Below are positions 20,113 to 61,938 of a stretch of 64,000 nt of DNA, one piece after another (the stretch's first letter is position 1; the number at the start of each line of letters is the position of its first letter). The stretch is from Candidatus Sulfomarinibacteraceae bacterium (GTDB lineage Bacteria > Acidobacteriota > Thermoanaerobaculia > Thermoanaerobaculales > Sulfomarinibacteraceae): contig CAWCLO010000007.1 of NCBI GenBank assembly GCA_963796455.1, positions 192,001-256,000 on the forward strand, given 5' to 3'. Both the position numbers and the translations under genes were made by a program. The notes under the pieces are model-generated. The model made no database searches, was not told where the DNA came from, and saw nothing but the letters and a program-made list of their open reading frames with translations.

Positions 20113-20562
20113 TCACTCTTGTCCAAGACAGAGTCTCGGATAGCGAACAGGGACAGCGACAGAGATCAGGAGTCAGCGGCAGCAATCAGTCATCAGCGTC
20201 AGTGATCAGCGGCCGGGACAGCGAACAGCATTCACTTCTTCGGGCTCCGGCCTTTGTGGTGCGGCCGTCTCGGCCGCACGGTGTGCAGGCGAGACGCCTA
20301 CACCACAACCGCTGTTCCTTCTGTAAAACCACCCGGAGGAGGCCACTTCGTCGCTTGGACTCCTGATCGCTGCTGCTGAACACTGATCGCTGAACCCGGT
20401 CGCTGCTCCCTGTCCCTGCCGCTGGACACTGTCGCTGCCGCTGCAATTCGGGATCGGGATCGGGTACGTGCCAACCGCGAACCGGAAATGCCAAAAACCA
20501 ACCCGTAAACCACGTGTTGTCAGGTGGGTAACATCATGACAATCTGTTTTGGACAGCAGTGA
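20113..20562 (-). mobile_element. E1: short non-coding TIR element (MITE-like), flanking repeat TTCAGGA
   Basis: Ends TCACTCTTGTCCAAGACAGA and TCTGTTTTGGACAGCAGTGA. TTCAGGA at 20106-20112 and 20563-20569. Near-identical inverted copy of E8. Confidence 0.88.
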
Positions 20563-20576
20563 TTCAGGATGCAGGA

Positions 20577-20990
20577 TTACTCTTGTCCAGGACAGAGTAT
20601 TCAGACCGTGACCGGGGACAGTGTCAGTGAACAGGAGTCAGCGTCAGAGTTCAGTCGGCAGCGTCAGCGATCAGCGATCAGCGACCGGGACAGCGAACAG
20701 CACTCACATCTTCGGGTTCAACAGCCGCCAGGTCATCGCACGGCCCTGATCGAAGGCATTCATCGCTTCACCGGCTCCGTTCGGGCTGATCGCCCCGGCG
20801 GGGGCGAGGAGCTCCAAGTGGCCGACCACCGGCTACCCCTGCTGGTGAACGACCCGGAGGTGGCCACGCCGTCGCGGAACCTGATCGCTGATCGCTGACG
20901 CTGCCAACTGTCGCTGCCGCTGTTCGCTGTTCCCTGACGCTGGACACTGTCGCTGCCGCTGCAATTCGGGATCGGGATCGGAATCGGGCC
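20577..20990 (-). mobile_element. E2: internally deleted element with four-helix-bundle gene remnant
   Basis: Degenerate TIR TTACTCTTGTCCAGGACAGA at 20577. The 5' arm of the leader hairpin is fused directly to the last ~40 codons of the gene. Far end not defined. Confidence 0.8.
20704..20826 (-). pseudogene. 3' fragment of four-helix-bundle protein gene
   Basis: Translates to VGHLELLAPAGAISPNGAGEAMNAFDQGRAMTWRLLNPKM*, matching the C-terminus of the intact copies. Confidence 0.9.
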
Positions 20991-31613: not shown

Positions 31614-33456
31614 GTGGATTACAAAGTAGATAAGCGCGATGTCAAGTTCCAGCTCTTTGAATGGCTGGGTCTCGGCAAGATGCTCGAGGCAGAGAAATTC
31701 GCTGATTGGGACGAAGAAAACGTGCAGATGGTCCTCGATGAGGCCCTCAAGATCGCCAAGGAACAGTTGGGACCGTGCAACGAGGACGGAGACCGCATCG
31801 GCGCCCAATATGCCGATGGCAAGGTCACCCTGCCGGAATCCTTCAAACCCGTCTACCAGACCATCTGCGAAGGAGGTTGGCTCGGGCTCCTGGCAAGCCC
31901 CGAATATGGGGGCATGGGTCTTCCCGACACCGTCGGTACGGCGGTCAACGAGTTTTTCAACGGTTCGAACGTGGCTTTCACCCTGACGCTCATGTTGACC
32001 CGTGGTGCGGGCGCCATGATCGAAGGATTCGGCACCGATGAGCAGAAGGCCACCTTTGTCGAAAAGCTCTACTCCGGTGAGTGGAGTGGCACCATGTGTC
32101 TGACCGAGGCACAGGCCGGATCCGATGTCGGCGCCTCCACCACCAAGGCGGTTAAAAACGACGATGGCAGCTATGCCATCAGCGGTGAGAAGATCTTCAT
32201 CACCGGCGGCGACCACGACCTGCCCCAGAACATCATCCACCTGGTCCTCGCACGCACCCCGGATGCTCCCAGCGGAACAAAGGGTCTTTCCCTGTTCATC
32301 GTTCCCAAGATCCGGATCAATGACGACGGTTCCCTCGGAGAAGCAAACGACGTATTCGTCAACAATATCGAGGAGAAGATGGGCATCCACGGTTCGCCCA
32401 CCTGCACCCTCGTCTTCGGCCAGAACGACGGTTGCCAGGGCTTCATCCTGGGCGAAGAGCTTCAAGGCATGAAGCTCATGTTCCATCTCATGAACGCTGC
32501 CCGGATCGATGTTGGTCTGCAGGGCCAGGCTGCCGCCGGGGCCGCTCACCAACAGGCCCTGTCCTACGCCAAAGAGAGGTTGCAGAGCCGTCACTGGAAA
32601 GAGCTCAGAAATCCCGACGCGCCGCAGGTGGCGATCATCGAGCATCCGGACGTCCGGCGCATGTTGCTCTCATCGAAGGCCTACACCGAGGCCATGCGGG
32701 CACTGCTCCTGCAAACCTCCTATTACCTCGATATGTCCCACCTCACCGAGGGGGAAGAGGCCGAGCGATATCACAGCTATGTCGAGATGCTCACGCCGAT
32801 CTGCAAGGCGTGGTGCTCGGAATGGGGCGTCCAGGTCACCCACTGGTGCCTGCAGGTCCACGGTGGTTATGGCTATACCTCGGACTATCCCGCAGAACAA
32901 TTCATGCGTGACGCAGAAATCGCCTGCATCTACGAGGGCACCAATGGGATCCAGGCACTTGATTTCGTTGCCCGCAAGCTGCCGATGAACAACGGCCAGA
33001 CGATCCGCGAACTGCTCGGCGAGGCCGAGGCGACCTTCAAAAAGCTCCGCAGCGATTCGGAGATGATGGAACCGGCGTGGATGCTGGCCGCCGCCCTCAA
33101 ACAGATCGAGACCATCTCCAAGGAAATCACGAAACGGCCCGATGCGATCCAGTTGGTGCTCCTCAACGCACCCCCGCTGCTCGACATGGTCGGTACGGTA
33201 CTTGGTGCCCACTTACCTGTTGGATCAGGCCATTCTCGCAAAGAAAAAACTGACCGAAATCCTCCAAGAACAGGGGATCGACAGCGACGACAAAAAGGCC
33301 TACAAGGAATTCCTGAAGGGCCACGAAGACGCCGCCTTCTACCACAACAAGGTCCAGACCGCGATCCACTTCGCCTACCGCGCGCTGCCCACCGTGGCCG
33401 CCAAAGGCGCCGCAATCCGGTCAGGAGAAAAAAGCCCCTTCTACGCGATCATGTGA
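31614..33456 (+). pseudogene. Acyl-CoA dehydrogenase, frameshifted near 33213 (pseudogene or sequencing error)
   Basis: GTMCLTE..AGSD, ISGEKIFIT, EEKMGIHGSPT, GGYGY and IYEGTNGIQALD motifs. The natural C-terminus (YLLDQA...AAFYHNKVQTAIHF...AIM*) is in another frame; removing one T in CACTTACCTG restores it. A terminator follows 33456. Confidence 0.85.
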
Positions 33457-33484
33457 TCGCGATCGTTCCCTCCTCTTTTCTGGT

Positions 33485-33512
33485 TGCCCCCGCCGAGCGG
33501 GGGCATTTTTTT
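33485..33512 (+). terminator. Intrinsic terminator
   Basis: TGCCCCCGC-CGA-GCGGGGGCA followed by TTTTTTT. Confidence 0.9.
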
Positions 33513-33786
33513 GGCCCTAGGGGCTTGGGGATCGCAAATTTCCATCGAACCACATTGCTGTCCAAAACAGATCGTCATGAAGTTTCCCACCTGACAACAC
33601 GTGGTTTTCGGGTTGGTTCTTGGCATATCCAGTTCGCGGTTGCCCGCGTCCGCGTCCGTGCCCGTGCCCGAATTGCAGCGGCAGCGACAGGCAACAGCGA
33701 TCAGGGGCAGCGACAGGGAACAGCGACAGAGGGCAGCGACAGAGGACAGCGGAGGCGGCAGCGATCAGGAGTCCAGTCGGCGAAAT

Positions 33787-33923
33787 GGCCACCTCCGGGT
33801 CGTTCAACAGAAGGAGTAGCCGGTGGGCGGCCGATGTCAAGGACAGGCAGGGTGCAGGGCATCCTTGACATCGGCCACCACACCGGCTTGTGGGGTAGGG
33901 GCATGAACGACCCGGAGGTGACC
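33787..33923 (+). promoter_or_regulatory. Conserved nested hairpin sequestering the SD of the four-helix-bundle gene
   Basis: Three stems: GGCCACCTCCGGGTCGTTCA/TGAACGACCCGGAGGTGACC, AGCCGGTG/CACCGGCT and GGCCGATGTCAAGGA/TCCTTGACATCGGCC. Also at 54839-54974, 56687-56822 (minus) and 58929-59064. Confidence 0.8.
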
Positions 33924-34277
33924 ATGTCTTCAGCCGCCACGAACACCAACCTCGTTGCCCACTCCAAAGCCCTCGAAGCAGCAGGCATCTCGATAAAACT
34001 CGTGATGAGGGTTCCAGCTCCGCTGAAGTCCATAGCCAATCAGGTAATCCGTTCGGCAAGTTCAGTCCCTGCGAATCTGGCAGAAGGGCACGGCCGCGTC
34101 GGTAGAGACCGGTCGAATCACTGGAGAATCGCCTACGCCTCGGCCAAAGAGGTCGACAGCCACTTGCAGCTCCTCGCCCACACCGGGGCGATCAGCCCGA
34201 ACAGAGCCAGTGAAGCGATGAACGCCTTCGATCAGGTGCGTGCCATGACTTGGAGATTGATCAACCCAAAGTCTTGA
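33924..34277 (+). CDS. Four-helix-bundle protein (23S rRNA IVP / Avd-like family), 117 aa
   Basis: IANQVIRSASSVPANLAEGHGR...IAYASAKE family motif; GGAGGTG SD. Confidence 0.9.
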   Translation: MSSAATNTNLVAHSKALEAAGISIKLVMRVPAPLKSIANQVIRSASSVPANLAEGHGRVGRDRSNHWRIAYASAKEVDSHLQLLAHTGAISPNRASEAMNAFDQVRAMTWRLINPKS

Positions 34278-34537
34278 TTTCAGGGCTCCATGCCAGTCAA
34301 ACGTGAGGCTGACTGCTGTTCGCTGACCATGAACACTGGACACTGGTTCCTGACTCTGATCGCTGTCGCCGTCCCTGAACGCTATCCGAGACTCTGTTTT
34401 GGACAACATCGATCGAACGACAGCATTACAGGCCCATTCCGTCGAAGGAGATTCCGGCTACGACAAGGAAAGCAAAGCCGCGAGCCAGGTGCTCGCGGCT
34501 TGTTGTAGGCGAAAATTTTTTGGACTCGAACGCGGGA

Positions 34538-48121: not shown

Positions 48122-48647
48122 TCACTCTTGTCCAAGACAGTGTCTCGGACAGCGTTCAGGAACGGCCCTGAAGGTGGGCCAAGGCCCACCTTCAGAGTTG
48201 TGTCCCGCTGGCTGGATCACCCAGCCCAGGCGGGAAGTATCGGACAGCGATCAGGGGCAGCGGCAGCGAACAGTCGCCAGCGGCAGTGTTCAGTCATCAG
48301 CGTCAGCGATCAGCGGCCGGGACAGTGAACAGCACTCATTTCTTCGAGGATCCGGCCTTGGTGGTGCGGCCGTCTCGGCCGCACGGTGGGCAGGCAAGAC
48401 GCCGACACCACAGCGGCTGTTCCTTCTGTTGAACGACCCGGAGGTGGCCACGCCGTCACTGCACCTGATTGCTGCCGCTGAACTCTGATCACTGTTCGCT
48501 GAACCTGGACACTGTCGCTGCCGCTGCAATTCGGGAGCGGGATCGGGTACGTGCCAATCGCGAACCGATAATGCCTAAAACCAACCCGAAGACCTTCTAT
48601 TGTCCTGGATGCGATTTCACGTGAAGATTTGTTTTCGACAGCAGCAA
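48122..48647 (-). mobile_element. E4: short non-coding TIR element, degenerate, with nested palindrome
   Basis: TIR TCACTCTTGTCCAAGACAG at 48122 and degenerate TTTGTTTTCGACAGCAG near 48628. Same central cassette as E1/E8. Extra palindrome at 48168-48195. No intact flanking repeat. Confidence 0.78.
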
Positions 48648-51522: not shown

Positions 51523-53649
51523 TCACCTGCCGACTGCGCTTCCAGGCCAGCGCACAACCTGAATGCCCGAATAATAGTGTTTGAGAATCCTCTCGAAATC
51601 CATCCCGACGCGCGCGAGACCGTAGGCACCGTGCTGGCACAAACCCACACCGTGCCCCCATCCGCGGCCCAGAAAATGAACCCGGCGTTCGCCGTCGGCC
51701 CCGGTTCTCAGGTGCATCGCGAAGAAAGTCTCCGGAAGTTCGAGCGCTTGTCGGACCTCGAAACCCGACCATTCGCGGGTTGTTCCATCCCGGGCGACCG
51801 CAGCCAACCCGATGACTCTTCCGGATGGTGAGCGCCGGGTCACGGTCAGTCGTTCGAGGGCCGTCATTCCAAGCACCTCTTCGATCTCCGACCAGCTCTT
51901 GTCGCGAACCCACTCGCGCCACGCCGATCGCCGGTCGGCTTCGCCGCCACCCTCGGATCGAACGATGGCCAAGGCCGACACTCGTTCTCCCAGCCGAATT
52001 CGCTCGAGAACGGTTCCTGGAGACACCTCGGCGCTTCGCACACTCCGATACGCTCCAGCCCACCTTTCCCACAACGGAAGCATAGACGGCAGCGGCATCG
52101 AGTGTTTGGCGCGCCTGGGGAATATCCCAACACCGTCCGGTCGAGGCACCGCCTCACCCGTGTCGCGCACTACATCGCCGCGCAGTTCGAGAACCGTGAG
52201 CGCCGCCGCGGCCGCCCAATCCGAGCTCAGACCGGCAGACGGCGGGTCGAGGGGCGCGAGAAAAAGATCGGCCAGAAAGAGCAGTCTTTCGAGACCATTC
52301 GAAGACGGGGCGATACCGGACGGAGGATCGATGCCGGCAGCCTTCAGGAGCGCAGCAGAAAAGGTTTCGCCGTCGAGCGAGGTCGGCGTCCCAATGCTTG
52401 CTCCGAAACGAGACTGGAGTCGGGCCAGAATCTCTCCGGGACCGGAATTCGGTGCGAGAGCGAGAATCTGGAACGCAACCGCAGCCGAATAAGCCGTTTG
52501 ATCGATCCAACCCGTTTCCGCCGACGCGCCGGCCATTTTCATCGGCCGATCCCAAGCGCACGACACGCCCCTCAAGTAGGGTCGGACGCGGCCCGGAAAG
52601 AGCACCTCCACATCCTCCGTATGCCCGCCACAGGTCGAGGTGTACATGGCATCGATGGGCTCACCTTCATAAACCGCCACCAGACCGGCACTCTCGCGGA
52701 TGGCGCGGTTTGAAAGGGAGTGTTCGACATCAAAACCTTTATAGACCTGGCAGGTCGGGGTATCGCAGAGATCCCAGCCTTCATCGGCGTGATCGCCGAG
52801 ATGGGCCACTGCGTAGGTTCTCGCGGCAACCGTCTGAGCCTTGAGGGCATTGAGTTCAGGAAACTGCGACGGGCCCATCTCGGCCGGAACCACACCCTTC
52901 AGATAGCTTTCGAGATTGAGTTCGTTGATGACCAATGCCTCGCCACCCATCGCCCGGGCCAGCAATCGTCCGCGGTATCGACGGGAACCGACGGCAACCG
53001 GCCAATCGCCCGCAGGGTCCATCAGGATCTCACCGGCGCTGGTCACCGCTGCGCCGTTTGCGCCGGCGATCCGCACTTCGCCACTGCGTGGGATCGGTCG
53101 GACGGCGTCGAAGCCGAGGGCCTCGAGCTCTCGTTCGGGATCAGAGGGCTCGCTGCCGAGCCATCCCACCAGAAGCCTGGTCAGACCATCCCGAATGGTC
53201 TCCTCTCGGATCTCGACAGACGATCCGAATTTTCGCTGCAGCCGCTGCCGCGCGGCGGCGACATTTGCCGGATCGCCCCACGCACCGAGTTGCCACCAGC
53301 GCGAACCGGCGGTATCCACCGTCACAGTGATCGGTCCCCATAACCAGGCGGCACGACCATCAAAACTGAGGCGATACGCCCTTCCGGGTTGAGGCAGGCG
53401 AATCTGGGAGGATGAACGCTGGAGCAGGACGCGAATCAATGGCGGCTCAACGTCCTGAATCCGCAGAATAGCCGGCGGCGGTACCGTTGGCACCGCGGTC
53501 GGCACGGGGGTCGCAGTCGGCACCGGCGTCGGCGTCCCCACGACTTCAGCCGTCGGGGCCGGAGTGGCGCTCGGTGGCCGCTGAATCGTCTGTGGCGCGC
53601 TGGCACAGCCCGCGGCCACCGCCAGGATACCGACGAGCACCACCCTCAC
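51523..53649 (-). CDS. SpoIID/LytB domain lipoprotein with SPOR-like region
   Basis: Lipobox AAGC, YLKGVVPAEM, LKAQTVAARTY, CQVY, GHGVGLCQHGA and ILKHYY motifs. Confidence 0.92.
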   Translation of the reverse strand: MRVVLVGILAVAAGCASAPQTIQRPPSATPAPTAEVVGTPTPVPTATPVPTAVPTVPPPAILRIQDVEPPLIRVLLQRSSSQIRLPQPGRAYRLSFDGRAAWLWGPITVTVDTAGSRWWQLGAWGDPANVAAARQRLQRKFGSSVEIREETIRDGLTRLLVGWLGSEPSDPERELEALGFDAVRPIPRSGEVRIAGANGAAVTSAGEILMDPAGDWPVAVGSRRYRGRLLARAMGGEALVINELNLESYLKGVVPAEMGPSQFPELNALKAQTVAARTYAVAHLGDHADEGWDLCDTPTCQVYKGFDVEHSLSNRAIRESAGLVAVYEGEPIDAMYTSTCGGHTEDVEVLFPGRVRPYLRGVSCAWDRPMKMAGASAETGWIDQTAYSAAVAFQILALAPNSGPGEILARLQSRFGASIGTPTSLDGETFSAALLKAAGIDPPSGIAPSSNGLERLLFLADLFLAPLDPPSAGLSSDWAAAAALTVLELRGDVVRDTGEAVPRPDGVGIFPRRAKHSMPLPSMLPLWERWAGAYRSVRSAEVSPGTVLERIRLGERVSALAIVRSEGGGEADRRSAWREWVRDKSWSEIEEVLGMTALERLTVTRRSPSGRVIGLAAVARDGTTREWSGFEVRQALELPETFFAMHLRTGADGERRVHFLGRGWGHGVGLCQHGAYGLARVGMDFERILKHYYSGIQVVRWPGSAVGR

Positions 53650-54413
53650 AAGCGAATTCCCCCTTCGCGAGACGCGAGCCGCTGGGCGCGGTAGTCGAGT
53701 CCCCGGAGTTCGAGGCGCCGGCACATTTCATAGAGCCTCGATCGGATCCTCTGCGATACCCGGTCGGTCAACGACTCCTCGGCCGAAGCTTTGGGAAAAT
53801 CCGAAAAATTGGTCGTGTAGATCGTCAGTTTGCCCTCGAGATAGCGCGTGTTGACCAGATAGTAGAGAAGATCCATGACCCACGGCGTCGACTTTCCCGC
53901 TCCGAGTTCGTCGAGCACGAGGAGATCCGCGTCGATCAGTGGTCGCAGGATCTTGCGGCTCGACCCCGAGCCGTCAAAGGTCATCTGGATCTCGAGGATC
54001 AATGAGGTGAAATCGGCAAATCGTCCCCGGATCGCCGGGGTCTTTTCGCGCATTATCTGTTGCATCGCCGCCACCGCGAGGTGGGTCTTGCCCGTACCGA
54101 CCGGCCCCATGAGGAGGAGGCCCTTGTCGGTGGCTGGAAAGAGATCGACGAATTCCTGAACCGAACGAACCGCCTTTGCGAGGGTCGGATCATCCGGGTT
54201 CCAAAGTTCGAAGTCCGCAAGCGTGCAATGTTGGTAGCGGGCTGGAATCTCGGCCTGTTGGAGATAACGTTCCCGCAATGCCCCGGCGGCGCACCCGCAT
54301 CTCTTGACCAACTCGACGCCGTTTTCCTCCACCAGAATCCACCCGGTGCCGCCGCACTTCGAACAGGTCTCGGTCGTCTCAGCGCTCTCGGAGGTTTTTC
54401 CAGTTTCGGCCAT
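53646..54413 (-). CDS. DnaC/IstB-like AAA+ ATPase with N-terminal Zn-binding motif
   Basis: CSKCGGTGW...CGC, GPVGTGKTHLA, LLVLDELG, TTN and RIRSRLYEMC motifs. Confidence 0.88.
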   Translation of the reverse strand: MAETGKTSESAETTETCSKCGGTGWILVEENGVELVKRCGCAAGALRERYLQQAEIPARYQHCTLADFELWNPDDPTLAKAVRSVQEFVDLFPATDKGLLLMGPVGTGKTHLAVAAMQQIMREKTPAIRGRFADFTSLILEIQMTFDGSGSSRKILRPLIDADLLVLDELGAGKSTPWVMDLLYYLVNTRYLEGKLTIYTTNFSDFPKASAEESLTDRVSQRIRSRLYEMCRRLELRGLDYRAQRLASREGGIRL

Positions 54414-54612
54414 CGGCACAGTATAGCCGCACCCTGTGTCCATCTCTTGGTTCGATTCGCTATCGCTATCGGGATCGCTATCGCTATCGATGGGCCTCTT
54501 TGGATCCAGCCTTTCGTTTTTCGACGGTTGATGCCAGATGCATCTCTTGGGGCAGTCAGTTCTCAATCTTTAACGCAGAGACGCCAAGGCGCAGAGTCGC
54601 AGAGACATCGCA

Positions 54613-55428
<816 letters not shown>

Positions 55429-55513
55429 TCCAGCATCCGGGATCCAGCATCCTGCATGCCTCGCCCTGCATCGAGTATCGTGTAATTGACAAACAACCGA
55501 CCCGAGGTGATGT

Positions 55514-56116
55514 ATGGAAGCCGTCAAGGATGAATTGCTGGAATTCTGGTTCGGAAATGACCCCGACGACGCGGTGGTGGCCGAGCAAAAGGCTGGACTT
55601 TGGTGGGGCCACCAACCCGGTACCGATGAGGAGATTCAGCGTCGTTTCGGCACCGCCGCCGCGGCTGCCGCGGTCGATTATCTCGATCACTGGAGTGGTT
55701 CGCCACGCGGCAGACTTGCCTTGATTCTGCTTCTCGACCAGGTCCCGCGCTCGATCCACCGCGGAATGCCGGAAGCTTTCGCCACCGATTTCAAGGCTCG
55801 GGAGGTTGCCGTGCAGGGCCTCCAGAGCGGCGCCGACAAGTTGTTGCGGCCGATCGAACGACTCTTCTTCTATCTGCCGTTTGAACACTCGGAAGAACTG
55901 GCCGACCAGGAACGAAGTATGGAGCTTTTTCGCCAGCTTGCCACCGAGGTTCCGGAGCAACATCGGGTCACCTTTGCCGCCTTTGTCGATTATGCGGTGA
56001 GGCACCACGCTGTCATCGCTCGTTTTGACCGCTTCCCCCACCGCAATATGGTTCTCGGCCGCGAGTCGACGCCCGAAGAGTTGGAATTTTTGGAGCAACC
56101 GGGGTCGTCGTTCTGA
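55514..56116 (+). CDS. DUF924 family protein
   Basis: LEFWF, LALILLLDQ.PR, FFYLPFEHSE and IARFDRFPHRN motifs. Confidence 0.93.
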   Translation: MEAVKDELLEFWFGNDPDDAVVAEQKAGLWWGHQPGTDEEIQRRFGTAAAAAAVDYLDHWSGSPRGRLALILLLDQVPRSIHRGMPEAFATDFKAREVAVQGLQSGADKLLRPIERLFFYLPFEHSEELADQERSMELFRQLATEVPEQHRVTFAAFVDYAVRHHAVIARFDRFPHRNMVLGRESTPEELEFLEQPGSSF

Positions 56117-56193
56117 GAAAGGGAGAAGGGCAGGACCGCACGGTTGCTCGATACTCGATACTCGATACTCGATACTCGATGCTGGATGCTGGA

Positions 56194-56980
56194 TCACTCT
56201 TGTCCAAGACAGGGTCTCAGACAGCGACCAGGGACGGGGAACGGCGGACAGCGTCAGGAAACAGTAGTCAGCTGTCAGCGGCAGCGGCAGAAACCAGCGC
56301 CAGCGACAGTGGTCAGCGGCAGCGAATAGCACTTACATTTTCAAGTTCTAAAGCCGCCACGTCATGGCACGGACCTGATCGAAGGCGTTCATCGCTTCAC
56401 TGGCTCCGTTGGGGCTGATCGCCCCCGCATGGGCGAGGAGCTGCAAGTGGCTGTCGACCTCTTTCGCCGAGGCGTAGGCGATTCTCCAATGGTTCAACCG
56501 GTCTCTACCGAAACAGCCGTGGCCTTCAGCCAGGTTCGCAGGGACTGAACTCGACGATCGGATCACCTGATCGGCTATGGACTTCAGCGGAGCTGGAACC
56601 CTCATCACAAGCTTGATCGCTATTCCTGCTGCTTCGAGGGCTTTCGAGTGGGCAACGAGGTTGGTGTTCGTGGCGGCTTTGGACATGGTCACCTCCGGGT
56701 CGTTCATGCCCATTCCCACAAGCCGGTGTGGTGGCCGATGTCAAGGATGCCCTGCACCCTGCCTGTCCTTGACATCGGCCGCCCACCGGCTACCCCTTCT
56801 GTTGAACGACCCGGAGGTGGCCACGTCGTCGCCTGTACTCCTGACCGCTGCCGCTGGACACTGATTGCTGATCTCTGTCGCTGACGCCGCCTCCTGTCGC
56901 TGTCCCTGCACCCTGGACACTGTCGCTGACGCTGGGCACTGTCGCTGCCGCTGCAATTCGGGATCGGGATCGGGATCGGG
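56194..56980 (-). mobile_element. E6: four-helix-bundle element, left end truncated
   Basis: TIR TCACTCTTGTCCAAGACAG at 56194 next to a (CTCGATA)n array; hairpin and gene on the minus strand. Confidence 0.82.
56348..56686 (-). CDS. Four-helix-bundle protein, 112 aa (TAG five codons before the usual end)
   Basis: Ends WRL*NLKM*, whereas sister copies end WRL(L/I)NP... Confidence 0.85.
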   Translation of the reverse strand: MSKAATNTNLVAHSKALEAAGIAIKLVMRVPAPLKSIADQVIRSSSSVPANLAEGHGCFGRDRLNHWRIAYASAKEVDSHLQLLAHAGAISPNGASEAMNAFDQVRAMTWRL

Positions 56981-57051
56981 AAAACAGTGCGGTCAGCTCT
57001 ATTCGCGATAATGAGCGCCGAATTTCTCATTCCTAGTTCATAATTCTGAAG

Positions 57052-58272
57052 ATGCGAGTCCTTCACGTCCTCTCCCAGCGGCCGTCCCTGACCGGCAGCG
57101 GCATCACCCTCGATGCGCTCGTCCGGCATGCCGCCGCGAAAGGCTGGGATCAACGGGTCGTGGTAGGCACACCGGCCGGTGATCCAAGGCCGCCAGTCGG
57201 CGGACTTGAGGGTCCCTTCATCGATCCTCTTGTGTTCGGTTCGCCGCCACTGGATTTCGAGCTACCCGGGATGAGCGATGTCATGCCCTATCCGAGCTCC
57301 CGGTTTTCAGAACTCCGGCCGACCCAGATCGACGCTTACCGAGAAGCGTGGACCAAACATCTCGAGCATGTGGTCGAAGACTTCGAGCCCGACATCATCC
57401 ACAGCCATCACATCTGGCTGATGTCCGCTCTGGTCAAGGACGTCGCCACCGGTATCCCGGTCCTCACCCACTGCCACGCCACCGGTTTACGGCAAATGGA
57501 GCTTTGTCCTCATCTAGCCGACGATGTGCGCCGGGGGTGTTCGCGCAACGAGGCTTTCGCCGTTCTCCACCGCGGCCACGCGTCGGAACTCGAGACCCGA
57601 CTCGGAATTCCCGGCCATAAAATTCATCGGGTTGGTGCCGGCTATCGCGACGATCTCTTTCACACCCACGATCGAGCACAGGAAGAGAATCCGGCGCTCC
57701 TGTTTATCGGGAAATTCAGCCGGTCAAAGGGCCTTCCCGAACTCCTGGACGCCTTCGATCGAGTTCGGACGCACCGACCGGAGCTTCGGCTCCACGTCGC
57801 CGGAGGGGGCTCCGGCAACGAAGCGGACGAGTTGCGAGCGAGAATGGAGCGGATGGCTCCATCGGTTGAAATGCACGGCCGGTTGCCGCAATCGGCAGTC
57901 GCGGATCTGGCCCGGCGAGCAACGGTGTGCGTCCTCCCATCCTTTTACGAAGGACTTCCTCTCGTTCTGGTTGAGGCGCTGGCCTGCGGATGTCATCTCG
58001 TGGCGACCAATTTGCAGGGCATCCGCGAGGAGCTGGCGCCCCGGCTCGGCGATGCCCTGACTCTGGTTCCGTCGCCACGAATGATTTCTATCGACCGACC
58101 CGACCCCGGCTCCCTGCCGGTCTTTGTCGATGATCTCGCGACTGCAATCGATCAAAGCCTCGACAAGGCACCGATCGGCGACCCGAAAGCCTCTCTTCCA
58201 GAAGCCCTCGAGACCTTCTCCTGGACCGCTGTTTTCGAGCGGGTGGAACGGATCTGGCAGGGCCTTCTCTGA
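57052..58272 (+). CDS. Glycosyltransferase family 4
   Basis: PDIIHSHH, FIGKFSRSKG and VLPSFYEGLPLVLVEALACG motifs. Confidence 0.93.
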   Translation: MRVLHVLSQRPSLTGSGITLDALVRHAAAKGWDQRVVVGTPAGDPRPPVGGLEGPFIDPLVFGSPPLDFELPGMSDVMPYPSSRFSELRPTQIDAYREAWTKHLEHVVEDFEPDIIHSHHIWLMSALVKDVATGIPVLTHCHATGLRQMELCPHLADDVRRGCSRNEAFAVLHRGHASELETRLGIPGHKIHRVGAGYRDDLFHTHDRAQEENPALLFIGKFSRSKGLPELLDAFDRVRTHRPELRLHVAGGGSGNEADELRARMERMAPSVEMHGRLPQSAVADLARRATVCVLPSFYEGLPLVLVEALACGCHLVATNLQGIREELAPRLGDALTLVPSPRMISIDRPDPGSLPVFVDDLATAIDQSLDKAPIGDPKASLPEALETFSWTAVFERVERIWQGLL

Positions 58273-58274
58273 TC

Positions 58275-58622
58275 TCAGACCAGTTCGAGCACCCGTTCCG
58301 TGGGCCGCCCGAGGACCGCCCGTTTCCCCGTAATGGCGATCGGCCGCTCGATCAGCCGTGGGTGCTCCACCATCGCCCGAATCAGTTCGTCGCGATCGAG
58401 CGTGGTGTCGGCGAGACCGAGTTCCGTGTATTCCTTCTCGCGCTTGCGCATGAGTTCGCGAGGTTCCATTCCGAGCATTTTCAAGACGCCCTCGAGTTCC
58501 CCAGCCGTCGGGGGTTGCTTGAGATACTCGACGATTTCGAAGTCGATTCCTTTGTCACGAAGCAGGCTGACCGCCTGCCTGGATTTGCTTCAACGGGGGT
58601 TGTGCCAGATGACCAGTGGCAT
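58275..58622 (-). CDS. arsC: Arsenate reductase (glutaredoxin-type ArsC family), predicted selenoprotein, 115 aa
   Basis: GGAGG SD, then MPLVIWHNPR-UGA-SKSRQAV...EYLKQPP...HPRLIERPI...LGRP. The TGA (58592-58590) occupies the catalytic Cys of HNPRCSKSR. Confidence 0.9.
58559..58592 (-). promoter_or_regulatory. Bacterial SECIS-like hairpin
   Basis: UGA, 9 nt, then AGGCAGGC-GGUCA-GCCUGCUU; the G-initiated apical loop lies 17 nt after the UGA. Confidence 0.75.
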
Positions 58623-58695
58623 GGATATTCCTCCTTGGCAGCGATCATAGCCCGGACGGATGCTGGATGCTCGATGCTGGATACTTGACGCTGGA

Positions 58696-59559
58696 TCACT
58701 GCTGTCCAAAACAGATCGTCACCTGAAGTTACCCACCTGACAACACGTGGTTTACGGGTTGGTTTTTGGCATATCCGGTTCGCGGTTGGCACGTACCCGT
58801 TCCCGATCCCGAATTGCAGCGGCAGCGACAGTGTCCAGCGTCAGCGACAGACAACAGCGAACAGGGACAGCGGTCAGTGTTCAGCGCCAGAGAGCAGCGG
58901 CAGCGGTCAGGAGTACAGGCGACGAAGTGGCCACCATCGGGTCGTTCAACAGAAGAGGTAGCCGGTGGGCGGCCGATGTCAAGGACAGGCAGGGTGCAGG
59001 GCATCCTTGACATCGGCCACCACACCGGCTTGTGGGTATGGGCATGAACGACCCGGAGGTGACCATGTCCTCAGCCGCCACGAACACCAAACTCGTTGCC
59101 CACTCGAAAGCACTCGAAGCCGCAGGAATCGCGATCAAGCTCGTGATGAGGGTTCCAGCTCCTCTGAAGTCGATAGCCGATCAGGTGATCCGGTCGGCAA
59201 GTTCGGTCCCTGCGAACCTGGCAGAAGGGCACGGCCGGTTTGGTAGAGACCGGTCGAACCACTGGAGGATCGCCTACGCCTCGGCCAAAGAGGTCGACAG
59301 CCACTTGCAGCTTCTCGCTCACGCCGGGGCGATCAGCCCGAACAGAGCCAGTGAAGCGATGAAGGCCTTTGATCAGGTGCGTGCAATGACTTGGAGATTG
59401 CTCAACCCGAAGTCTTGATTTCAGGGCCCCATGCCAGTCAAACGTGACGCTGACTCCTGTTCGCTGACGCTGAACACTGATTGCTGTTCCCTGTCCCTGA
59501 CGCTGATCGCTGTCGCCGTCCCTGAACGCCAGCCGAGACTCTGTCTTGGACAAGAGTGA
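58696..59559 (+). mobile_element. E7: full-length 864-bp TIR element with four-helix-bundle gene, flanking repeat CGCTGGA
   Basis: TIRs TCACTGCTGTCCAAAACAGA / TCTGTCTTGGACAAGAGTGA (17/20). CGCTGGA at 58689-58695 and 59560-59566. Confidence 0.9.
59065..59418 (+). CDS. Four-helix-bundle protein, 117 aa
   Basis: IADQVIRSASSVPANLAEGHGR motif. Confidence 0.9.
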   Translation: MSSAATNTKLVAHSKALEAAGIAIKLVMRVPAPLKSIADQVIRSASSVPANLAEGHGRFGRDRSNHWRIAYASAKEVDSHLQLLAHAGAISPNRASEAMKAFDQVRAMTWRLLNPKS

Positions 59560-59902
59560 CGCTGGATGCTGGAACCTCCGCGGCGTAGCCGGAGGGAAAA
59601 GCCTGAGAAACCGCAGATCACGCAGATCAACGCAGATTGACCCTCGCAATGGCCGTCGTGGCAAACACCATTGCCCACAGAACACACAGAAAAGCATGGA
59701 ATAAGGCGCAAAGAACGCAAAGATGCCATGAACCTGAAGAAAAGAACCTCGACCGTCGCAAAAGTAAAACTTAGCGTCGCCTTTGCGCTTTTTGCGTTCT
59801 TAGCGTTTTTAGCGTTGCAAAACGGCGCCTTTACAGCAACCGCCATTCCTCAGGTGCCGCCGGCCCGGACGCGGCTCAGACCGGCGGATCCAGTATCCAG
59901 AA

Positions 59903-60360
59903 TCACAGCTGTCCAAAACAAATCGTCATTTGAAGTTTTCCACCTGACAGCACCTGGTTTACGGGTTGGTTTTTACCGTATCCGGTTCGCGGTTGGCCCG
60001 TACCCGATTCCGATCCCGAGCCCGAATTGCAGCGGCAGCGACAGTGTCCAGCGACAGGGACAGGGAGCAGCGACCGGGTTCAGCGATCAGTGTTCAGCGG
60101 CAGCGATCAGGAGTCCAAGCGACGAAGTGGCCTCCTCCGGGTGGTTTTACAGAAGGAACAGCGGTTGTGGTGTAGGCGTCTCGCCTGCACACCGCGCGGC
60201 CGAGACGGCCGCACCACAAAGGCCGGAGCCCGAAGAAGTGAATGCTGTTCGCTGTCCCGGCCGCTGATCACTGACGCTGATGACTGATTGCTGCCGCTGA
60301 CTCCTGATCTCTGTCGCTGTCCCTGTTCGCTATCCGAGAACCTGTCTTGGACAAGAGTGA
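59903..60360 (+). mobile_element. E8: short non-coding TIR element, flanking repeat TCCAGAA
   Basis: Ends TCACAGCTGTCCAAAACAAA and CCTGTCTTGGACAAGAGTGA. TCCAGAA at 59896-59902 and 60361-60367. Confidence 0.88.
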
Positions 60361-60441
60361 TCCAGAATCTAGTATCCAGCATCAAAAAACGCCCCCGCTC
60401 AAATGAGCGGCGGCGTTCCTGGTTCCAAATTCAGACGTCCT

Positions 60442-61938
60442 TCAGCGTTTCCAATCTTCGACGAAGTCGGCTGGATTCCGGTTTTCGCCGTCGTCTCGGA
60501 CCTCGAAGTGAAGGTGCGGGCCGGTGCTTTTGCCGGTCGATCCCACCGTGGCAATGACCTCCCTTTGCGAAACCCGTTGCCCGGCATCTACCGCCAGTGA
60601 TCCGAGATGGGAGTACATGGTCGTGAGACCCTGGCCGTGGTCGATAATGATCACCGTCCCCGCCGCCGGCGATTCTTCATAGGCTTCGGTGGCCACCCTG
60701 ATCACGCCGCCGGCCGGCGCCACCACCGGTGTACCGGTCTTTGCACCGATATCGATGCCGCGGTGAAAAACACCCTCCTTGCCTGTGAATGGATCACGCT
60801 TCCCCGGACCAAAGGTCTGGGTTACCCGTCCATCGGGCAACGGATTGATCATTGTCATCTGATTCTTCAACTGCGCCGGGCTCGATGTCTGCATCCCCTG
60901 CTCGCCATCATCCGGTGCGACCGTCGCACCACCTTGACCCAGTGGCAACAAAAAGACTCCCAAAACGAAGGCTCCCAGTACTGCCGCAACAACCCGCGGC
61001 CGGCCGCCTTCGCGATCGAGGATTTTTTGAATTCGCACTCCGATTCTCCTTTTCTTGGCACTCATGGTTGGGGCTCCCGCTCCCTGCAGGTCGAGCCGAA
61101 GCACGTTGAGGAGGCCTCCGACATAGTCGCGGGCAGCAAGGCGCCCGGCGGCCACCGCCGTCGCATCCGCCAGCTGCTCGCGTTCTTCGCTGAGTCTCGC
61201 TCCGCTGATCCAGACCAGCGGATGGAAAAAGTAGACCGAATGGATCAGGTGTTGCAGACCGAGCCACAGTGCGTCCAGCCTCGCAACATGAGCCATCTCG
61301 TGGGCGATCACCGGTTCCAGGCAACTCGAATCGGCCAGAACGGATTGTGGCAGGAAGATCACGGGTCGAATCACGCCGGTTGTAAAGGGACTGGTTCGAG
61401 CGTTGGAGGAAAGGACTCTCACCCTTCGCCGGATCCGCAAGCGATCCCGCCACGAAGCGGCCAGCGCATCGATTTCTGGATCCTTCACCTCGACGGCGGC
61501 TCGGAGAATCGTGGAGAAGGCGGTTTTGCGCCTGCGATAGACGGAGAAGGTGGTCAACGCACCAACCACCCACACGATAAAAATGCCCACCGCCCTGTTC
61601 TGAGAGGCCCCCGAAGGCCCGATCAGAAAAGCCTCGCCGCCGCCTGTGGCTGCCAATGCCCCGTTGGGAGGAGCCTCGACCTGATGCGCACCGACGGAAA
61701 AATTCGATACTGAAACCGCGCCCAGGAGGCGACCGGCGCTTAACGGATGATTCAGCCCCGGCGGCAACAGCAGCCGGAGAAAGATCAACGACCACATCGC
61801 CACGTGAAAGGCCGGTCCGATCCGCCGGCCGCAGCGCGCCATGATCACCACGAAGACAAAGACCGGGATCACCAGGAGACTGTCCCGGACCAGCAGATCG
61901 GCCCAGGCGGATGCAAGATCGAGAAACATCGAGCTCAC
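60442..61938 (-). CDS. BlaR1-like M56 peptidase fused to M23 peptidase domain
   Basis: HEMAHVAR...YFFHPLVW...EREQLAD (M56); HRGIDI, TMYSHL and STGPHLHFEV (M23). Confidence 0.93.
   Translation of the reverse strand: MSSMFLDLASAWADLLVRDSLLVIPVFVFVVIMARCGRRIGPAFHVAMWSLIFLRLLLPPGLNHPLSAGRLLGAVSVSNFSVGAHQVEAPPNGALAATGGGEAFLIGPSGASQNRAVGIFIVWVVGALTTFSVYRRRKTAFSTILRAAVEVKDPEIDALAASWRDRLRIRRRVRVLSSNARTSPFTTGVIRPVIFLPQSVLADSSCLEPVIAHEMAHVARLDALWLGLQHLIHSVYFFHPLVWISGARLSEEREQLADATAVAAGRLAARDYVGGLLNVLRLDLQGAGAPTMSAKKRRIGVRIQKILDREGGRPRVVAAVLGAFVLGVFLLPLGQGGATVAPDDGEQGMQTSSPAQLKNQMTMINPLPDGRVTQTFGPGKRDPFTGKEGVFHRGIDIGAKTGTPVVAPAGGVIRVATEAYEESPAAGTVIIIDHGQGLTTMYSHLGSLAVDAGQRVSQREVIATVGSTGKSTGPHLHFEVRDDGENRNPADFVEDWKR

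Follow-up and report, generated by a model that had tools for sequence, protein, structure and literature searches.

A repeated four-helix-bundle gene cassette of Candidatus Sulfomarinibacteraceae with IS4-family ends, probably moved in trans

How a cassette with one small gene and no transposase of its own comes to stand at many places in a genome is the question raised by a 64-kb stretch of DNA (the window, G000:C7:192001-256000) from a Candidatus Sulfomarinibacteraceae bacterium, the genome of which (G000) comprises 5.02 Mb in 10 contigs and is 90.5% complete. The pattern of the inverted ends (TIRs) was matched 12 times in the window, against 0.03 matches expected. All eight copies reported in a first-pass annotation, E1 to E8, were recovered at their places and in both orientations, and the order described there for long copies (TIR, VNTR, arm, hairpin, gene, arm, TIR) was borne out (Table 1). 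The TIRs are real, but measure 19 bp counted from CACT instead of ~20 bp, and the ends of E7, rightly located but given as 58696-59559, were corrected to those in the table.

Table 1. Cassette copies in the window and the parts of E7 (window positions)
Feature	Position	Strand	Remark
E1, gene-less derivative	20114..20561	-	duplication 9/9 ATCCTGAAT
E2, right end only, partial gene	20578..20981	-	16 bp from E1, same array
E3, complete, gene 33924-34277	33553..34411	+	duplication 8/9
E4, decayed gene-less derivative	48123..48646	-	flanks match 4/9
E5, left TIR lost, gene 54975-55328	54613..55427	+	
E6, right end only, stops at hexamer VNTR	56195..56974	-	gene 56348-56686, stop at codon 113
E7, complete cassette, 862 bp	58697..59558	+	
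E7, left copy of 9-bp target duplication ACGCTGGAT	58688..58696	+	
E7, TIR equivalent to right (3') end of autonomous IS4 elements	58697..58715	+	
E7, hexamer VNTR, CCCGWT-type	58797..58816	+	
E7, 5' hexamer arm (CAGCGR)	58825..58897	+	pairs with 3' arm in predicted fold, longest helix 23 bp (58864-58886 / 59468-59490)
E7, leader hairpin with compensatory changes	58929..59064	+	
E7, 117-aa four-helix-bundle gene (PF05635/TIGR02436)	59065..59418	+	
E7, 3' complementary hexamer arm	59457..59516	+	
E7, TIR equivalent to left (promoter) end of autonomous IS4 elements	59540..59558	-	
E7, right copy of 9-bp target duplication	59559..59567	+	
E8, gene-less derivative, shared 82-nt interior	59904..60359	+	duplication 9/9 ATCCAGAAT

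The copies E1, E4 and E8 are not simple deletions of the long form; they have a common 82-nt replacement interior. The left duplication of E7 is made of the final units of a GATGCTG heptamer array, which begins near 58658. By eye, the ~70 nt that follow the TIR at 58697..58715 look like the corresponding end of gene-less IS4 MITEs (see below). As the TIR on the far side corresponds to a promoter end, the cargo gene is oriented opposite to the former transposase. All copies had been called intergenic, yet E3 overlaps an 887-codon open frame (31614-34277) that begins in an acyl-CoA dehydrogenase gene. This frame becomes non-protein-like near codon 535 and the acyl-CoA dehydrogenase gene is separated from E3 by a terminator-like GC hairpin and its T-run, so E3 is probably intergenic still. 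A frameshift read-through is more probable than a true acyl-CoA dehydrogenase fusion, and the shift near codon 535 appears to be a natural frameshift or an assembly error.

The surroundings of E7 hold further repeats. Arrays of 9-mers, of CGCAGAT type and of AAAGAACGC type, the latter with an inverted copy, occupy the E7-E8 interval (59600-59840), and inverted 9-mers of AAAGAACGC type bracket a small gene at G000:C1:750121, which looks like a member of the GxxExxY family. The neighbouring gene at 60442-61938 encodes a BlaR1-type M56 peptidase domain fused to an M23 peptidase domain. In Rfam, window positions 53000-61000 had no match but a weak one to RNase P, which scored far below the cut-off.

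The first-pass annotation had called for a genome-wide count. Profiles of the ends gave 320 hits, of which the 305 with at most 6 TIR mismatches were kept (111 left, 194 right). Of these ends, 109 are unpaired and the others form 98 facing pairs (86 left-right), i.e. ~200 loci in the genome, E1-E8 among them. Forms were counted for the 85 left-right elements shorter than 1.5 kb (one 5.9-kb pairing was dropped): 31 hold a full gene and no other, 29 the shared 82-nt interior, 12 a partial gene and 13 none, leaving 54 of 85, all of them shorter derivatives, without a full gene. PF05635 was matched 70 times genome-wide, by 66 genes of the cassette family and four unrelated ones; the spread of the cassette explains the 66 near-identical "four helix bundle" genes in one genome. 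On crude gene calls, the cassettes do not preferentially follow a gene on the same strand (16/31). The unpaired ends are unequal in number (84 right-only vs 25 left-only). Among the 83 right-only copies scored, 54 stop at the hexamer VNTR, and 53 of the 54 have no duplication; this right-only excess stopping at the VNTR is not accounted for by transposition.

The base preceding CACT is T in 77-78% of ends, compared with 90-94% conservation of the C, and the outer T/A that had been counted as TIR is therefore target DNA. Once the TIR is set at CACT, the 7-bp direct repeats noted earlier turn out to be parts of a 9-bp duplication: a perfect 9-bp direct repeat flanks 22 of the 86 left-right elements, with none at lengths of 4-8 or 10-13 bp, and a 7-bp duplication was rejected on this count. 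At least 8 of 9 bases match in 41 of 85 elements (shuffled mean 7.9, max 17). Where both flanks are unlike the heptamer 9-mers (n = 24), nine elements reach this level, compared with 0.41 after shuffling (max 5), so that flanks match above the expectation for arrays, a point on which the first-pass annotation had asked for tabulation. Shifting the register by 7 bases lowered the perfect matches from 22 to 10. Flanks match better as direct than as inverted repeats in 68 of 85 elements, and better as inverted in 14.

The target consensus is a near-palindrome, ATSCWGSAT, which occurs every 7 bp in a GATGCTG array. An array-like flank was found at 163 of the 305 ends, against 0.1% of random sites. 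Of the 182 heptamer arrays of this genome, 92 are free of elements, and G015, with 207 array matches, lacks the TIR altogether. The notion that arrays are footprints of the elements was rejected, since arrays are abundant where matching ends are absent (GATGCWS in G015 and G031, AACGTTN in G013). Pairs of elements stand 16 bp apart in one heptamer array at window positions 20561-20578 and at G000 C2:76337/76354, C3:330034/330051 and C8:99794/99811; such a spacing is the sum of a 9-bp target and a 7-bp unit.

Insertions differ between species. In G006, 20 of the 41 paired elements fetched have perfect 9-bp duplications (shuffled mean 3.5). Of 26 G006 sites with syntenic flanks in G000, 16 have no TIR there, five are occupied in the same and five in the opposite orientation; one of the 16 TIR-less sites holds a gene copy without ends. 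It had been proposed to look for empty orthologous sites with a single 7-mer. At the 65-80% identity of these flanks TIR presence or absence is readable, as at the 16 sites, but the 7-mer state of the single-copy target is not. Occupancy of the same syntenic site (10/26, compared with ~12% of gaps) exceeds expectation, suggesting hot spots or that some old insertions are shared. A search of sequencing reads for an empty site gave no clean joint (best DNA share 0.48); two read joints skip about the element length, but have short sides and end in another repeat, and were left uncounted. Identity is 97.9% among twenty genes of G006 and complete among seven of G008, which suggests recent bursts. 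The copies in G000 average 89% identity.

A transposase bounded by the same TIRs, the object of a search suggested earlier, was found in the IS4 family. The intact 425-aa enzyme L010 (G017, from the family search) lies between cassette TIRs, scores 251 bits with NF033592 (cut-off 115), comprises DUF4372 and DDE_Tnp_1 (PF14294 and PF01609) and, as a single-ORF DDE transposase, has the Y(2)R(3)E(6)K motif: YKDRWQIELFFKALK. In all eight full-length IS4 elements compared with E7, the right end is identical at 18/19 positions and the left at 14-18/19. A left-TIR scan of the genome collection, in which one end was pattern-selected and the other end and the transposase were independent of selection, gave at least 103 loci; at least 32 hold this transposase, 32 being counted among the loci listed, and many other listed loci end at a contig edge. 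Nine of those listed show both ends at 1.36-1.42 kb, and four of the nine (L082, L084, L098 and L099) have perfect 9-bp duplications outside GATGCTG arrays. Named records in which these ends occur are from Ca. Sulfomarinibacteraceae. The cassette consists of two IS-derived TIRs, has no internal transposase and makes a duplication of the length of its parent IS (9 bp), and its shell is very probably a non-autonomous derivative of an IS4-family element.

No IS4 transposase was found in G000 by tblastn or with a 12-sequence profile for which a positive control was run, and neither an ISL3 transposase nor an RVT_1 match was found in this 90.5%-complete genome; in the window, the first-pass annotation had recognised no transposase, integrase or RT. 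Among 25 genus genomes, the partner transposase was found in one, G017, with just two IS4 TIR matches (those of its own IS); it was not found in the incomplete assemblies of G000, G006 and the other genus genomes. The cassette copies of G006 look recent though no partner was found there. Two other partners were rejected. The only DDE_Tnp_1 element found in G000 (L009:1468-2529, at G000:C7:~291000) encodes 353 aa and has unrelated ends. For an IS50/Tn5 partner, PF02281 and PF14706 are absent from G000 (the PF02281 control matched nowhere), and NF033590 exceeds its cut-off in none of the 25 genus genomes. G006, the genome with the youngest IS4-ended cassettes, has eleven RVT_1 matches (L378 and others), several with near-identical scores and frame lengths, which are probably group II introns.

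Movement of the IS4 shell does not appear to depend on the gene within. A duplication of at least 8/9 flanks 15 of the 29 gene-less (82-nt) forms vs 16 of the 31 full forms, and as gene-less forms are thus equally common and equally often flanked, the protein is probably dispensable in cis. IS4 MITEs that share these ends but have no gene enclose other hairpin cargo, in the named records L039, L040, L044 and L094 and in L177-L181 of G008, and more than one kind of hairpin repeat thus seems to be taken up by the IS4 shell. L039, L040, L094 and L177-L181 carry REP-like palindromes. In G034 and G005 most TIR pairs are ~200-410 bp apart, too close for the gene. A viral collection gave 27 TIR-pattern matches, none with transposase or gene, and no relative of the protein.

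The same gene module also occurs in a second, unrelated shell. It was matched in 15 of 30 relatives, including 14 of 18 of the genus, and in G008, G014, G017, G005, G033 and others a different TIR, GGYTCATCCGGAAT, stands at its ends; exact matches to this TIR occur in 12 of 25 genus genomes but not in G000 or G006. All 14 paired copies scored with these ends match at 7 or 8 of 8 flanking bases, a count made at AACGTTN array sites and unshuffled, hence weaker than the IS4 count. This TIR also bounds the 1303-bp ISL3 elements L225 (NF033550, 295 bits with a cut-off of 180) and L371; in G017, L371 adjoins an ISL3-ended cassette copy. Just inside ISL3-type ends, L260 and L252 have ORFs of ~400 aa, which look like IS110 transposases. 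Module copies in G004, G003, G018, G010 and G015 have no recognisable ends and may be decayed.

A tree was built from 126 genes (25 of the 60 G000 copies, 20 from G006, and others from 13 further genomes and metagenome contigs). In this tree, in which the bootstrap is partly unsettled and which has no true root, all genes of G000 and G006, i.e. the IS4-shelled ones, form one clade (support 100/99), the remainder of the tree being made up of ISL3-ended and end-less copies. The dS is 0.38 within the IS4-shelled clade and at least 0.67 to genes outside it. The simplest reading would be one capture by the IS4 shell, a direction suggested by the greater diversity outside that clade. Beyond the relatives, the protein clade was found in one of 300 other genomes of the phylum (E 1e-20).

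The assignment of the E7 protein to PF05635/TIGR02436, proposed for checking, holds, with 57.7 bits for PF05635 (cut-off 33.8) and 59.3 for TIGR02436 (cut-off 24). The protein is basic, with a predicted pI of 10.7. Modelled from its single sequence (pLDDT 73), it forms four helices and resembles 2GSC (TM 0.77, E 2e-5), 2RLD and Avd (4DWL; TM 0.75, E 0.03), in keeping with the kinship to Avd noted earlier. Among 60 ungapped full-length G000 copies, a choice that excludes frameshifted copies and so is biased upward, 58 have an open frame, with pN/pS to the consensus of 0.18. Variants shared by at least three copies comprise 102 synonymous and 37 non-synonymous changes, 104 of the 139 at third codon positions, and private variants comprise 40 synonymous changes, 73 non-synonymous changes and two stops. 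The corresponding dN/dS is ~0.12 for shared vs ~0.60 for private variants (Fisher p 7e-10); private mutations are close to neutral. Between lineages, dN/dS is 0.09-0.30 in 14 of 15 consensus pairs, the remaining pair being saturated. These substitution patterns indicate that the gene is under purifying selection. The copies are, however, recombinant mosaics, in which 67% of site pairs fail the four-gamete test and linkage declines with distance (0/1000 permutations), so the selected alleles need not be selected in place. The pattern of shared synonymous and private near-neutral changes would also be expected from a cis-acting protein.

The four unrelated, single-copy PF05635 genes (G000 C4:1278094, C1:983149, C9:2726 and C10:733004) have inverted 6-8-mer repeats of their own and no IS ends were seen around them. 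Bracketing by inverted repeats was found for two of the four by a strict test, against a background of 52 in 3458 genes, and for all four by eye.

The outer stem of the leader hairpin buries the GGAGG ribosome-binding site of the gene (59055-59059). Of the 42 pairs compared over 22 leaders, 14 are changed on each side (0/500 shuffles; slid controls far lower). This covariation does not prove RNA function, as the leaders are related and palindromes can homogenise at the DNA level. The predicted fold of E7 (z -8.6) closes the hexamer arms round the gene. A promoter and terminator scan of E7 found neither, with no sigma-70 promoter match. A TTGACA hexamer is conserved, facing outward, on both arms of the leader stem (58982-58987 and 59008-59013); no -10 box to go with it passed the scan.

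We consider a two-layer element the probable explanation: an IS4 shell moved in trans around an older inner module, with the protein, on balance, a passenger. The outer layer would be a non-autonomous shell of 19-bp TIRs and ~100 bp of the IS right end, mobilised in bursts by a cognate DUF4372+DDE transposase supplied in trans while the IS passes through the lineage. IS4-family elements transpose by cut and paste, and the shell would do likewise, through excision and reinsertion with a 9-bp staggered cut and a preference for the near-palindromic 9-mer. The chemistry assumed here is that outlined for the family in PMC2266710. The inner layer would comprise the older four-helix-bundle gene, its RBS-burying hairpin and the enclosing inverted hexamer arms; one lineage would have captured this module in an IS4 shell, and the module of other lineages stands in an ISL3 shell. 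Through the long stem, as an IVS-like RNase III substrate, insertions probably cost the host little, and the hairpin would keep translation off by default. We propose that such cheap insertions let copies pile up, and recombination among the accumulated copies would then yield the mosaics. Conservation of the gene would most likely derive from a few expressed source copies or from a life of the module outside the shell. Mobilisation in trans, one of two alternatives offered by the first-pass annotation, is thus supported by the IS4 ends and the matching duplication; the other, a new type of element whose protein drives mobility, finds no support for the IS4 shell in view of the gene-less forms and the ISL3 ends. 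The ends are swappable vehicles, ordinary in themselves, and the gene cargo is the puzzle.

Among the rivals, it is unlikely, though conceivable, that the protein aids the spread of its own module in cis, an Avd-like basic ring binding folded DNA or RNA and helping copying, capture or repair, with the IS ends as one route only. Such a role would suit the low dN/dS of shared variants and of lineages despite many redundant copies per genome, but recombination among copies can import selected alleles. The fold like Avd and 2GSC and the basic charge fit as well, against which stand the buried ribosome-binding site and the lack of an RT match in G000. Persistence of the module through IS4, ISL3 and end-less states, and the inverted short repeats around the unrelated single-copy genes, would likewise be explained; gene-less derivatives, equally abundant and equally duplication-flanked, and gene-less MITEs with other hairpin cargo would not. 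A related and also improbable version makes the inner module the true selfish unit, which its Avd-like protein, acting in cis on the folded DNA or RNA, would help to be copied or captured, so that it spreads without ends and hops between IS4 and ISL3 shells; the intervening sequences of rRNA would then belong to this module class too, as members that became stranded.

Quite unlikely is a host-beneficial passenger, such as an RNA chaperone or defence accessory, kept for dosage or multi-locus expression. The strong purifying selection and the open frames of 58 of the 60 copies, in that upward-biased choice, would agree with a benefit, but private mutations are near neutral and 54 of 85 paired elements have lost the gene. 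The family is described as common near defence loci and DGRs in PMC10053308; yet E7 has no sigma-70 match, the same-strand bias is absent, and the clade occurs in one of 300 other phylum genomes. It is very improbable that the copies are old fixed insertions homogenised by gene conversion, with flank repeats that are mere array units: the array-flanked ends, the co-occupied syntenic sites and the mosaics would fit, but duplications hold away from arrays, the 7-base shift halves the perfect matches or more, elements at co-occupied sites are as often in opposite as in the same orientation, TIRs are absent from 16 of the 26 syntenic sites, and G006 copies are 97.9% identical over 20 loci.

With regard to known systems, the two-layer cassette is closest in its outer layer to MICs, which have two IRs, no transposase and at least one CDS, span 700 bp-3 kb and are moved in trans, as described in PMC6199540 and PMC9330008. 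Like MIC231 and MITEs, the cassette has two IS-derived TIRs and no transposase, with one CDS, and like MIC231 (IS231 subgroup, IS4 family) its ends are of the IS4 family and its duplication spans about one helical turn. IS231-type elements have CAT ends and 10-12 bp duplications (Table 1 of PMC2266710), whereas the cassette ends start with CACT and the duplication is 9 bp, which sets it apart from that subgroup. It further differs from MIC231 and MITEs in its PF05635 cargo, ~200 loci per genome and a second, ISL3 shell. With IS4 elements of the DUF4372+DDE_Tnp_1 type (NF033592) it shares TIRs and 9-bp duplications, but not the transposase. The autonomous parent may belong to the IS4Sa subgroup, judged by ends, size and duplication: the CA-start ends, 1.36-1.42 kb and 9-bp duplication of the autonomous elements fit the IS4Sa row in Table 1 of PMC2266710 (CA-start ends, 1150-1750 bp, 8-10 bp duplication).

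In its inner layer, the cassette resembles ORF-bearing 23S intervening sequences (IVSs), which are described in PMC4990558 as stem-enclosed, excised by RNase III and of unknown origin. As in Coxiella S23p and Leptospira IVSs, a PF05635 ORF lies within complementary long-stem arms (predicted for the cassette), and by analogy RNase III may cleave the cassette transcript; probably poor translation is a further trait shared with the Coxiella IVS, for which PMC4990558 gives it. Unlike these IVSs, the cassette lies outside rRNA, has IS ends and duplications, and its gene is intact and selected rather than decaying; the single 23S gene of G000 (C10:140644-143654) contains no PF05635 ORF. A likeness of PF05635 proteins to Avd is noted in PMC10053308. 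Avd of DGRs and the cassette protein, as modelled, have the same fold and are both basic, but identity is 10% and no RT was found in G000.

Where ORF-bearing rRNA intervening sequences come from and how they spread has long been an open question, and among the hypotheses given in PMC4990558 are transposon remnants and a role of the ORF in mobility. Here a relative of the IVS ORF, in the same stem-enclosed layout, bears clear marks of DNA transposition. Candidate transposases can be named (L010 and L098 for IS4, L225 and L371 for ISL3), and the natural gene-plus and gene-minus forms make the role of the protein in spread directly testable. The first-pass annotation had allowed that the TIR might belong to a known IS with this passenger already described; the first part applies at family level, and for the second no published IS-ended cassette with a PF05635 gene was found in full-text literature, mostly non-subscription and exclusive of ISfinder. 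A non-autonomous shell mobilised in trans is a known kind of element.
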